A DNA stretch of 64,000 nucleotides, from positions 6,727-70,726 of the forward strand of contig MIQB01000003.1 in the NCBI GenBank assembly GCA_002890585.1, written 5' to 3'. Below are positions 59,401-62,400 of the stretch, piece after piece (position 1 is the first letter of the stretch; each line of letters begins with the position of its first letter). A program made the position numbers. The DNA comes from Tannerella sp. oral taxon 808 (GTDB lineage Bacteria; Bacteroidota; Bacteroidia; Bacteroidales; Tannerellaceae).

Positions 59401-62400
59401 GCAGCGCTGAGGCGTCGGTCAGGAGCGCGTCCTGCTCGGTTGTTTCCACGTCGCCGTCGCCCTCAAGTATTCGGTCAACAGTTTCGGTCAACAGTTCGGC
59501 GCCGATGGCCATTAATCGGTCGTGCACGGTGCCCGCGTCGTCCGCCTCGTTGATGGGCAGGCGGCGTTGCAAGATGATGCGCCCCGTGTCGATCGCATGG
59601 CGGAGGAAGAAGGTGGTGACGCCCGTCTCCTTTTCACCATTGATCACGGCCCAGTTGATCGGTGCCGCGCCGCGATAGCGGGGTAGGAGGGAGGCGTGCA
59701 GGTTGAACGTACCCAAGCGCGGCATTTCCCAGACCACCTGAGGGAGCATGCGGAAGGCGACGACGATTTGCAGGTCGGCGCCGAGTGCGCGGAGGGCATC
59801 GAGGAAGGCCGGATCGCAGAGGCGTTCGGGCTGCAGCAACGTGAGGCCTTGCGCTTCGGCATATCGCTTCACGGGCGAGGGCTGCAGCACACTGCCATGT
59901 CGGCCCATGGGTTTATCAGGCATGGTGACAACGCCCACCACGCGGTATCCGCCCTCCACAAGGGCGCGCAGGCTCGCCACAGCAAAGTCGGGTGTGCCCA
60001 TAAAAACAATCTTCAATTCGTGCTTATCCATCGTTATATATTCTTCGTTTGAGATGGACAAAAATAAAACGTTCTTACCCCCACTTCGCAGCGTTTGTGG
60101 CTCAAGAAGCATCTTTGAGGGCGTGAATAATCATTATTAGGAGCATAGATTATGAAGAAATTGAATCGCAAACTGATCCACGGCACCAACTGGGCGCTGG
60201 CGGGGTTGCTCTCTGTGTTGGGATTCTCTGGCTGTGGATGGGGAACTCAAGTGGAAGAGTATGGCACACCACATGCTGACTTCAAAGTCACGGGGCGCGT
60301 GACGGATGAGCAGGGCCAGCCGCTCTCGGGCGTGCGCGTGGTGACACCAAGTATGACAATGAAATGGCATGATTCCTTCAGTGAGTATCGCCAGACTAAC
60401 CCCCTCCGTGACACCGTGTACACCTCCGAAGATGGCACATTCGTCAGCCGCCCCGGCGGTGTCCCCACGGACTCGGTGTATGTACACATGAAGTTTGAAG
60501 ACCCCTCGGAGCGCCCGGCCTATGAGTCGGACAGCGTCACGGTCGGGTTTGCCCGGGGCGACCTGAAGGGCGGCGATGGGCATTGGTACAGAGGTGCGAC
60601 GGAGAAGAAGATCGAAGTCACGCTGAAGCGGAAGAACAAGTGATTAACCATAAACGAAAAGAAAGGGACACGAAACGATGAAAAGATTCAAACGCAAACT
60701 GATCCGCGGTACCAACTGGGCGCTGGCGGGGCTGCTGACCATGTTGGGATTCTCCAGCTGTAGTAGGATTGGAGAGATGGAGTACGGTTCACCGAACGCC
60801 AACTTCAAGGTCATGGGCCGCGTGACGGACGAGCAGGGACGGCCGATCTCGGGCGTGCGCATCGTGGCGCCAAACGTGGAGGGGAAATGGGGTAAGCAGC
60901 AATATCCATCCCCACTTGACACGACGTATACCTCCCCAGACGGGAGTTACAGGTACTGGCACAACGCCGGATGGGCGCCGGATTCGGTGTATGTAAAACT
61001 GAAGTTTGAAGACCCCACGAGTAATCCCCTCTACGAGCCGGACAGCGTCACAGTCGGGTTTGCCAAGGGCGACCTGAAAGGTGCTTCTGGGGAATGGTAC
61101 CAAGGCGCGGCGGAGAAGAAGGTCAACATCACGCTGAAGCGGAAGAACAAGTAATGAACGACGCCAAGATCGACCTCAGGAAGCGGATCGCATTGGAGAC
61201 CTTCCGCCGCATGCACCTCAACCGCGTGAAGCTGCACGAGCTCCGGACGCTCTTCTGGGAGTGCACCCTGCGCTGCAATGTGGCCTGCCGCCATTGCGGA
61301 AGCGACTGCCGCGTCTCGTCGCTACAGCCCGATATGCCCATGCAAGACTTTCTGCGCGTGGTGGACGAGATCACGCCACACGTCAATCCGCACAAGGTGC
61401 TCGTCATCTTCACCGGTGGCGAGGCACTCGTTCGGCCCGACATCGAGGCGTGCGGCCGCGAGCTCTACCGCCGCGAGTACCCCTGGGGCATCGTCTCCAA
61501 CGGGATGCTTTTCGCCGAGCGGCTGCCTGGCCTGCTGGCCTCCGGCATGCGCTCGGCCACGATCAGCCTCGACGGCTTTGAGGATGATCACAACTGGATG
61601 CGCGGCCACCGCAACAGCTTCCGCAACGCCACCGCCTCGATTCGTGCCCTGGCCGAGGTGGATGATGTGAATTGGGACGTCGTCACCTGCGCCAACCGCC
61701 GCAACTTCGACGATCTGCCCCGCTTCAAGCACTATCTGCTCGGGCTTGGCGTCCATCGTTGGCGCATCTTCACCGTCTTCCCCGTCGGCCGCGCCGCCCG
61801 CGTCCCCGAGCTGCAACTCACCGATGCGCAGTTTGTCAGCCTCATGCGCTTCATCCGCGATTCGCGTCGCGAGGGCCTCGAGGTCGCTTACGGCTGTGAG
61901 GGCTTCCTCGGCGGCTACGAGATGGGCGTCCGCGACCACTTCTACGAGTGTTCAGCGGGTGTCACCACGGCCTCCGTCTTGGCCGACGGCTCCATCTCTG
62001 GCTGCCCCAGCATCCGCGCCAACTATTACCAGGGCAACATTTACAGCGACAGCTTCATGGACGTCTGGGAGCACCGCTTCCGCCCCTATCGCGACCGCGA
62101 GTGGATGCGCAGCGGCGAGTGTGCCGATTGCAAGCTCTTCCGCTATTGCGAGGGAAACGGCATGCACCTGCGCGATGGCGACGGCCGCCTGCTCGTCTGC
62201 CACCATCGGCGCATCACGCAGGGGCTGAAGGCGGAAGGCTGAAGGCGAAAAGCGAGGAATGCGAAGTCCTGCTGGCCGGTTCGTGCGAATCAGCCGGCAG
62301 GACTTTCTTTTTGGTGCTTGAGAATCATTTCACACACTGTGAAAAGGGTGTGCAGGCCTTGCATAGTCATTTCACACACTGTGAAAAGGCCGCGCAAGCC

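Follow-up and report, generated by a model that had tools for sequence, protein, structure and literature searches.

A catalogued lipoprotein and radical-SAM/SPASM cassette of Tannerella, and a Tyr-Gly-x-Pro motif common to the exported partners of its enzyme family as a candidate modification site

A 64,000-nt stretch of the genome of Tannerella sp. oral taxon 808 (contig MIQB01000003.1, positions 6,727 to 70,726; hereafter the window) carries, according to its open reading frame (ORF) map and to a reading of its sequence, a cassette of three plus-strand genes: lipo1 (60152-60643), its paralogue lipo2 (60678-61154) and a gene for a radical S-adenosylmethionine (SAM)/SPASM enzyme (61154-62242), which encode two lipoprotein precursors of 163 and 158 aa and a 362-aa protein, respectively. 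On the strength of its profile scores the cassette belongs to a 'rSAM/lipoprotein system' already catalogued in Bacteroidota. What the comparison of related loci adds to the database entries is that the enzymes of this family are accompanied by at least three unrelated partner scaffolds, and that these are unified by a signal peptide and a YG.P-type motif: it is these, rather than the fold, that are invariant. The reading that we favor, and that we judge probable though well short of assured, has the enzyme act on the pre-lipoprotein while it is still in the cytoplasm, modifying Tyr-Gly-x-Pro or a nearby position ahead of Sec export, with lipidation and signal-peptide cleavage coming afterwards. 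The cassette is of a catalogued, uncharacterised kind, to which a motif-centred substrate hypothesis is the sharper addition.

The initial annotation had seen in these genes two small lipoproteins of about 160 aa followed by a radical-SAM/SPASM enzyme, had taken the lipoproteins for paralogues and had referred to a pairing of this type in family databases; each of these points held, and all three proteins scored above the curated cut-offs of profile models. The lipo1 and lipo2 products are 59% identical (BLASTP E=1e-66) and match NCBIfam TIGR04134, the 'radical SAM-associated putative lipoprotein' model (lipo_with_rSAM), near full-length at 107.3 and 109.4 bits (cut-off 39.8). The enzyme matches TIGR04133 (rSAM_w_lipo) at 570.1 bits (E=1.4e-171, cut-off 425) over positions 1-349 of the 350 of the profile, and it is above the Pfam gathering cut-offs for Radical_SAM (56.8 bits) and SPASM (31.9 bits). 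Both NCBIfam models are graded 'hypothetical equivalogs', and close homologues of the enzyme carry the public name 'radical SAM enzyme (rSAM/lipoprotein system)'. The TAATG at 61152-61156, in which the lipo2 stop codon overlaps the enzyme start codon as had been annotated, indicates translational coupling of lipo2 to the enzyme gene. In gene order and coupling the window is typical of the TIGR04133 + TIGR04134 system, and in membership it differs from it in nothing. An alternative enzyme start, the ATG at 61094 given by a mechanical ORF listing, is unsupported because the alignments with homologues begin within residues 1-6 as counted from 61154 and the family consensus opens MNK...LRKRIALE.

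Models of other radical-SAM families were scored in the same way. The enzyme reached 44.1 bits with PqqE (cut-off 381), 85.4 bits with MftC (cut-off 265) and a generic 56.3 bits with WgkB (cut-off 650); the tetrapyrrole models gave 92.7 bits for AhbD, 95.4 for NirJ2 and 77.8 for the third of the AhbD/NirJ set (cut-offs 500-515), and the nif11-type maturase model gave 105 bits, far under its cut-off. By these scores the enzyme lies outside every characterised radical-SAM/SPASM family scored; the initial annotation had held that assignment to a known family with a non-protein substrate would speak against its proposal, and AhbD, NirJ, PqqE and MftC are all far under their cut-offs. With the Pfam CarboxypepD_reg model (PF13620), lipo1 and lipo2 gave 21.3 and 25.1 bits, under the gathering cut-off of 32.3.

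The annotation had also expected the pairing to recur in related genomes, and it does. A scan with one genome per species returned 124 relatives, of which the best 80 (enzyme identity 53-88%) were analysed as loci; they come from genomes of Tannerella, Bacteroides and Alistipes, from Prevotella-like ones and from many of uncultured Bacteroidales. Upstream DNA was present for 79 of them and for the window (80 in all), and in the window and all 79 the immediately preceding gene, which has the strand of the enzyme gene, specifies a small exported protein whose signal peptide is followed by a YG.P, YGP or YG..P motif. An automatic screen found a motif-bearing lipoprotein-type ORF immediately upstream in 75 of the 80 (strict YG.P in 70). 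The five loci that it missed all show the motif on inspection: the N-terminus is masked by Ns in L003, the start is unusual in L024, L039 and L055, and L053 has a signal anchor without Cys. The background, estimated on 835 long ORFs of the same loci, was 0.026 motifs per 150 aa by the strict pattern and 0.06 by the loose one, which puts the enrichment among partners at more than 15-fold. In a logo of 111 motif sites, for which the search pattern itself demanded Y and G so that independent support is that of the enrichment and of the TIGR04134 alignment described below, the residue before Tyr is E, V, L, M or I, the residue after Gly is S, T, V, P, Q or C, and the motif ends in Pro in 92% of the sites and in Ala in 7%. 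The distance from partner stop to enzyme start (75 related loci) is mostly between -20 and +26 nt, with modes at -4, -1, +3 and +22. ORF clustering over +/-4 kb around the enzyme, in the 80 loci and the window, did not reveal a third conserved gene (protease, exporter or regulator): since no further flanking family is common to the loci, the system appears as a two-component module.

The partners fall into at least three unrelated classes. The first, recognised at about 44 loci with a profile built from the window lipoproteins and their homologues, consists of TIGR04134 beta-sandwich proteins. The second, at 29 loci, is made of helical repeat proteins that contain 'RREGA(C/A)VYGSPE(I/V)I..YG.ET.RLR' one to three times, and the third, at 11 loci, of mini-proteins of 60-90 aa such as '...FMAC-YGPAP...' or '...IRLMYGVPPRNY', some of which consist of barely more than the motif and a signal peptide. 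Examples of the last two classes are found at L075 5460-5966, L030 5724-5996, L026 5758-5973, L033 5801-5992 and L081 564-794; neither the helical-repeat nor the mini-protein partners matched any Pfam or NCBIfam family. By this count the TIGR04134 model covers about half of the actual partners of the enzyme and misses the other half. Even the signal peptides differ by class, being of the LLGFSxC type or of the LAFLAAC type. Common to all partners are only the YG.P-type motif and an exported N-terminus, whose signal peptide has a lipobox Cys in nearly every case.

Two further features of the partners were recorded. An aromatic residue returns 6-9 residues past Tyr-Gly (60260-60295 and 60783-60815 in the window) and could belong to the site that is recognised or modified. 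In beta-sandwich and mini-protein partners it is F or Y and stands at +7, whereas helical partners have Y at +9. In L015 (1765-1944), L016 (5760-5945) and L023 (5753-5938), the TIGR04134 copies are separated from the enzyme gene by a mini-lipoprotein of 60-62 aa that contains 'MYGCP' or 'IRLMYGVAP', so that several partner types can share one cassette.

Both window precursors start with a basic n-region and a hydrophobic h-region followed by the lipobox LGFSG-C28 or LGFSS-C28, as read from the sequence, lipidation being predicted. The signal peptide and lipobox of lipo1 (MKKLNRKLIHGTNWALAGLLSVLGFSG-C28) occupy 60152-60235 and those of lipo2 (…GTNWALAGLLTMLGFSS-C28) 60678-60761. The motif follows closely: in lipo1 it is Y37-G38-T39-P40 (60260-60271), a candidate modification or recognition site from the logo and the alignment, and in lipo2 it is Y36-G37-S38-P39 (60783-60794), directly ahead of beta-strand 1. 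The corresponding segments of the two window proteins are 'VEEYGTPHADFKV' and 'EMEYGSPNANFKV'. Across an alignment of 36 TIGR04134 members, with identity down to 33%, the invariant residues of the h-region are G11, T12, N13, W14, A15, L16, A17, G18, L20, L23, G24 and F25, and those of the motif are E35, Y36, G37 and P39; the invariant residues of the beta-sandwich domain are Gly or hydrophobic only, without a conserved polar residue. Mean pairwise identity is 91% for the h-region and lipobox and 86% for the motif, against 57% for the domain and 32% for the linker. Signal peptides seldom surpass their mature proteins in conservation, and the pattern seen here would fit a sequence-specific role of the signal peptide. 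The conserved blocks pointed out initially (FKVxGRVTDEQG and others) are real; they sit, however, in the dispensable beta-sandwich, and the E-Y-G-(S/T)-P just upstream had been overlooked. The ratio of nonsynonymous to synonymous substitution rates (dN/dS) between lipo1 and lipo2, about 0.51 over the whole length, falls to 0.31 for the signal peptide and stands at 0.54 for what remains, values indicative of purifying selection on both genes.

An AlphaFold2 model of lipo2 (mean predicted local distance difference test score 77) shows residues 1-33 as disordered and a seven-strand beta-sandwich over residues 40-150, with YGSP 36-39 in a stretch of low confidence that leads from the disordered N-terminus into strand 1. 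Foldseek searches with this model returned only generic transthyretin-like sandwiches, at template modelling (TM) scores of about 0.36-0.48: carboxypeptidase regulatory domains, intradiol dioxygenase cores and SusC N-terminal extensions. A catalytic beta-sandwich was considered and rejected, the matches to the intradiol dioxygenase core being weak (TM about 0.45) and conserved polar residues lacking. The domain looks like interchangeable cargo.

All 14 Cys of the enzyme are invariant or nearly so among 40 sequences. Three form the radical-SAM cluster motif C41-X3-C45-X2-C48 (61274-61297; 40/40 sequences), four others are C37, C52, C100 and C179, and the alignment places seven invariant ones in the SPASM region (61895-62200) with the spacing C248; C266-X12-G279-X4-C284; C323-X2-C326-X5-C332; C349. 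What we take to be the position of the fourth Cys of the canonical CX2CX5CX3C motif, assigned by motif and not by structural superposition, is an invariant Gly336; the ligand of one auxiliary cluster may therefore be non-canonical or open. The best full-length structural matches of the AlphaFold2 model (predicted TM score 0.81) are SuiB (TM 0.67), anSME (0.66), CteB (0.64-0.65), SkfB (0.61) and PqqE (0.57), the match to anSME, a protein of equal size, extending over the full length with the same TM of 0.66 under both normalisations. A sequence search of the PDB gave distant matches only, to BlsE, SkfB, MoaA, PqqE and anSME. The structural kinship with the peptide and protein maturases SkfB, SuiB, PqqE, CteB and anSME speaks for a protein substrate.

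Only 295 of 1.84 billion representative proteins matched the enzyme at E<=1e-30; the family is therefore a compact one. Four more distant relatives are nonetheless accompanied by comparable exported proteins or motifs. P0209 (locus L081; 38% identity, under the TIGR04133 cut-off) is preceded by a 76-aa ORF, 'MAKQVKKVYRILAWFFSAVVAAGTLMGC GGFSAKYGPPTSTKYGPP...', which overlaps the enzyme start and whose product has a lipobox and twice KYGPP. P0214 (L084, 38% identity) is preceded by '...LSGCPGPVMKYGPGP...', where a lipobox LSGC is followed by MKYGPGP, and P0231 (L086, 34% identity) by '...YATC-YGVYVD...'. For P0223 (L083, 36% identity), which scores 187 bits with AhbD, a signal-peptide protein with 'DFGPPMYAPPP' lies downstream of the enzyme. 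When the lipoprotein side was taken as the starting point, P0077, P0044 and P0009 were each found to be followed by an enzyme gene. Close Tannerella relatives share the order Na/Ala symporter - fmt - lipoprotein array - enzyme. At this fmt-adjacent site the number of TIGR04134 copies is one in L001, two in the window, three in L002 and four each in L092 and L094, which suggests that the array expands and contracts. More than one cassette is possible per genome, since L006 and L009, separate contigs of one Tannerella metagenome-assembled genome (Cc175_bin44), each have a TIGR04133 enzyme gene.

These features can be assembled into the following scheme, in which the cassette would be a self-contained module of substrate and maturase. 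The lipoprotein precursors would be synthesised in the cytoplasm, with the enzyme gene translationally coupled to them, and the enzyme would bind their unfolded N-terminus, i.e. signal peptide, short linker and Tyr-Gly-x-Pro. The 5'-deoxyadenosyl radical would then take a hydrogen at or beside the invariant Tyr-Gly and bring about a covalent change, most plausibly an intramolecular cross-link involving Tyr or an epimerisation at C-alpha. The modified precursor would go through Sec export, lipidation at Cys28 and cleavage by signal peptidase II; in the finished lipoprotein, at the surface or in the periplasm, its modified segment would serve as the tether next to the membrane and the beta-sandwich as exchangeable cargo. 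Modification is placed before export because the enzyme needs the reducing cytoplasm while its partners are exported, and the YG.P segment is taken as the target because this unfolded N-terminal feature is the sole one common to all partners. We infer along these lines that the partner is the substrate and the motif the site; the initial proposal of the upstream lipoprotein as candidate substrate is strengthened by the common signal peptide and YG.P, and it is still to be read as a proposal. As to the chemistry, two types were rejected. Formylglycine formation is disfavoured because the variable position of the motif is not confined to Cys or Ser. A thioether of the sactionine or ranthionine type is unlikely as the general chemistry because there is no conserved Cys donor: Cys is found at motif position -2 in 33 of the 111 sites, and the L053 partner has no Cys at all. 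The fullest version of the proposal, that TIGR04133 enzymes put an undescribed radical-SAM modification on the Tyr-Gly-x-Pro of Sec-exported pre-lipoproteins and that the signal peptide doubles as a recognition 'leader', is held more tentatively, at somewhat under an even chance.

Several known systems offer partial precedents. The short motif on which the anaerobic sulfatase-maturating enzyme anSME acts lies toward the N-terminus of an export-bound sulfatase, and its modification takes place in the cytoplasm, before Sec export. Like the enzyme of the cassette, anSME is a radical-SAM/SPASM protein of the same size without the recognition element (RRE) of enzymes acting on peptides made on ribosomes and modified after translation (RiPPs). 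However, the partners here are not sulfatases and lack a (C/S)-x-(P/A)-x-R motif, similarity in a profile-to-sequence comparison is marginal (E=2.6e-6), and the invariant Gly336 stands, if the motif is mapped correctly, where anSME has the fourth Cys of CX2CX5CX3C, one of eight Cys that ligate its two auxiliary clusters. With SuiB, CteB, SkfB, PqqE and MftC the system shares the fold and a small substrate gene directly upstream, often in tandem; PqqE and MftC act on Tyr-containing motifs. Unlike these maturases, the enzyme lacks an RRE and scores far under the cut-off of each family, and its presumed substrates carry a Sec/lipoprotein signal peptide instead of a cleavable RiPP leader, with neither protease nor exporter. 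Sactipeptide and ranthipeptide maturases go with a conserved core Cys donor and an N-terminal RRE, neither of which is found here beyond the lipobox Cys. The unit Y-G-(S/T/V/P/Q/C), whose third residue has a beta-carbon, is formally of the aromatic-X-X type, as are W-G-K and the units cross-linked by three-residue cyclophane ('triceptide') synthases; WgkB and those synthases, in contrast, have RREs and leader-containing peptide substrates, and the profile relation to them is generic only. Finally, QhpD is a radical-SAM/SPASM enzyme that modifies the small protein QhpC, the gamma-subunit of quinohemoprotein amine dehydrogenase, in the cytoplasm before periplasmic export. The logic of pre-export modification is alike, whereas QhpD makes Cys-to-Asp/Glu thioethers and is encoded in a multi-gene operon together with an exporter and a protease of its own; nothing of the kind is seen here.

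Other explanations have to be weighed against modification at the motif. The enzyme might act on a non-protein substrate (a tetrapyrrole or haem, a lipid, a sugar, a cofactor) and the exported partner bind, carry or use the product. AhbD, NirJ and NirJ2 are indeed among the best non-self profile matches, over the radical-SAM core, and more so in distant relatives such as P0223; MoaA, BlsE and DesII, which are small-molecule enzymes, are structural neighbours; and the beta-sandwich resembles binding or regulatory domains. Against this, the tetrapyrrole scores are far below cut-offs of 500 bits and more, no tetrapyrrole-pathway genes are nearby, so that a haem or tetrapyrrole function is unsupported, and no transporter or pathway gene at all is conserved around the 80 loci and the window. 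In addition, the sandwich has no conserved polar residues, and the partners differ in fold or have none: with a four-residue motif alone in common, a shared ligand pocket is impossible to define. We find this explanation improbable, and give the same low weight to one in which the precursor is the substrate and the YG.P, the signal peptide or both serve for docking only, the chemistry falling on the linker or on the downstream aromatic residue. Such docking would agree with the variation of the motif at +2 (S/T/V/P/Q/C), with the recurrent aromatic residue at +7 (F or Y) or +9 (Y), and with the h-region being the best-conserved part of TIGR04134, a leader-like role of which would suit an enzyme without RRE. 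It is harder to reconcile with mini-partners that hold almost nothing else than signal peptide, motif and low-complexity tail, and with the two types of signal peptide: as they differ by partner class, there is no universal leader sequence.

Mini-partners of 60-90 aa would leave mature lipopeptides of 30-50 aa, and the partner genes form tandem arrays of one to five with varying copy number, like RiPP precursor genes. The cassette could on this basis be thought to make a lipid-anchored or released RiPP-like peptide, a signal or an antimicrobial, with the short modified segment at the N-terminus as its active product and the larger domains as carriers that are later removed. No protease, ABC/PCAT (ATP-binding cassette/peptidase-containing transporter) exporter or immunity gene is conserved nearby, though, export seems to proceed by an ordinary lipoprotein signal peptide, and the beta-sandwich that would be discarded is under purifying selection (dN/dS about 0.54); we consider this possibility unlikely, still more so than the two preceding ones. 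Coincidence, or mere synteny, could be invoked for close relatives, which have their flanking genes in common, and for one lipoprotein that stands alone (see below). However, the pair persists across 80 loci though the flanking genes change, the motif enrichment holds on unrelated scaffolds and the association extends to enzymes at 34-38% identity, and start/stop overlaps are the norm: this last explanation has a negligible probability and is effectively refuted.

A number of observations weigh against modification at Tyr-Gly-x-Pro itself, in addition to the way in which the logo was built. No RRE was found in the enzyme model, which has some 30 residues with a single helix ahead of the cluster motif. 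The small-molecule enzymes among its structural neighbours have been mentioned, and the tetrapyrrole scores (AhbD 92.7, NirJ2 95.4) are as high as those of peptide maturases (nif11-type 105, MftC 85): sequence similarity therefore gives a protein substrate no preference. The motif abuts strand 1 in the beta-sandwich class and could therefore be partly structural there. Of the distant relatives, P0213 (L085; 39% identity, more AhbD-like) is without a partner of the kind described and has a thiolase/Memo context; it is the edge of the system. P0069 is an orphan TIGR04134 lipoprotein, fmt-adjacent and with no enzyme gene beside it (L090 4001-4501, L091 2859-3359), and tblastn detected no enzyme-gene remnant. 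Lastly, a full-text literature search found no functional study of the system, and no mass shift, cross-link or activity reported for it. As a separate observation, P0069 retains the conserved signal peptide and EYGTP, and it is followed by an extracytoplasmic function (ECF) sigma factor/FecR/SusC-like set.

The single mention of 'TIGR04134' that the literature search found is a typographical error for a C-terminal-domain model of the type IX secretion system, and a paper on RiPP mining in Bacteroidales never mentions lipoproteins (PMC10352776). The system is common in Bacteroidales associated with humans and animals (Tannerella, Parabacteroides, Bacteroides, Alistipes and Prevotella-like metagenome-assembled genomes). 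If the proposal is right, the cell envelope of major commensals and periodontal taxa would bear a protein modification that is new, and radical-SAM chemistry on proteins before their export would have a further case after anSME and QhpD. The modification would amount to a new class of lipoprotein post-translational modification, or to a 'lipoprotein-type RiPP', widespread in oral, gut and rumen Bacteroidales and carried by at least three unrelated cargo families. The comparative result narrows 'an enzyme beside a lipoprotein' to one enzyme and a segment of about 40 residues, which makes the function directly testable.

The cassette is flanked by a divergent fmt-like gene (59057-60112, minus strand) and by an asnS-like gene (62816-63928, minus strand), both from the ORF map. 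The intergenic stretch between the fmt-like gene and lipo1 (60040-60151, plus strand) is the presumed promoter region. A consensus scan limited to sigma-70-type promoters gave no match there; by eye, cATCTTTG (60110-60117) weakly resembles the Bacteroidetes -7 element TAnnTTTG and is a candidate. Downstream of the enzyme gene, RNA folding revealed a long GC-rich hairpin followed by UUUCUUUUU (62263-62312, plus strand), a likely intrinsic terminator (-37 kcal/mol, z = -3.9, with 0 of 200 shuffled sequences equally stable), which probably ends the transcription unit of the cassette.

The surroundings revealed a few oddities. Long ORFs in other frames cover the GC-rich enzyme gene (61322-61939 on the minus strand, 61746-62228 and 61948-62658 on the plus strand, and others); they are almost certainly non-coding artefacts, and the antisense ones are seen again in 37 related loci because the enzyme gene itself is conserved. 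Beyond the fmt-like gene, a Na+/alanine symporter-type gene (57674-58978, minus strand) is broken by an in-frame stop codon at 58796-58798 ('...ALATAVAA*VGTGNIGGVA') into ORFs of 60 and 373 aa. The syntenic gene is unbroken, with 465 aa, in the close Tannerella relatives L092 and L094; the split gene of the window is either a pseudogene or a sequencing error. The sole match of an Rfam scan of 59000-64000 was a sub-threshold plant microRNA, spurious, on a tandem repeat. This repeat, at 62324-62718 between the cassette terminator and asnS, has a 42-bp unit in about 9.4 copies, with a super-period of 84 bp. Its core 17-mer occurs eight times there and nowhere else in the window, and each 42-bp unit contains two short palindromes, TCACACACTGTGA and TGCAAGCCTTGCA.

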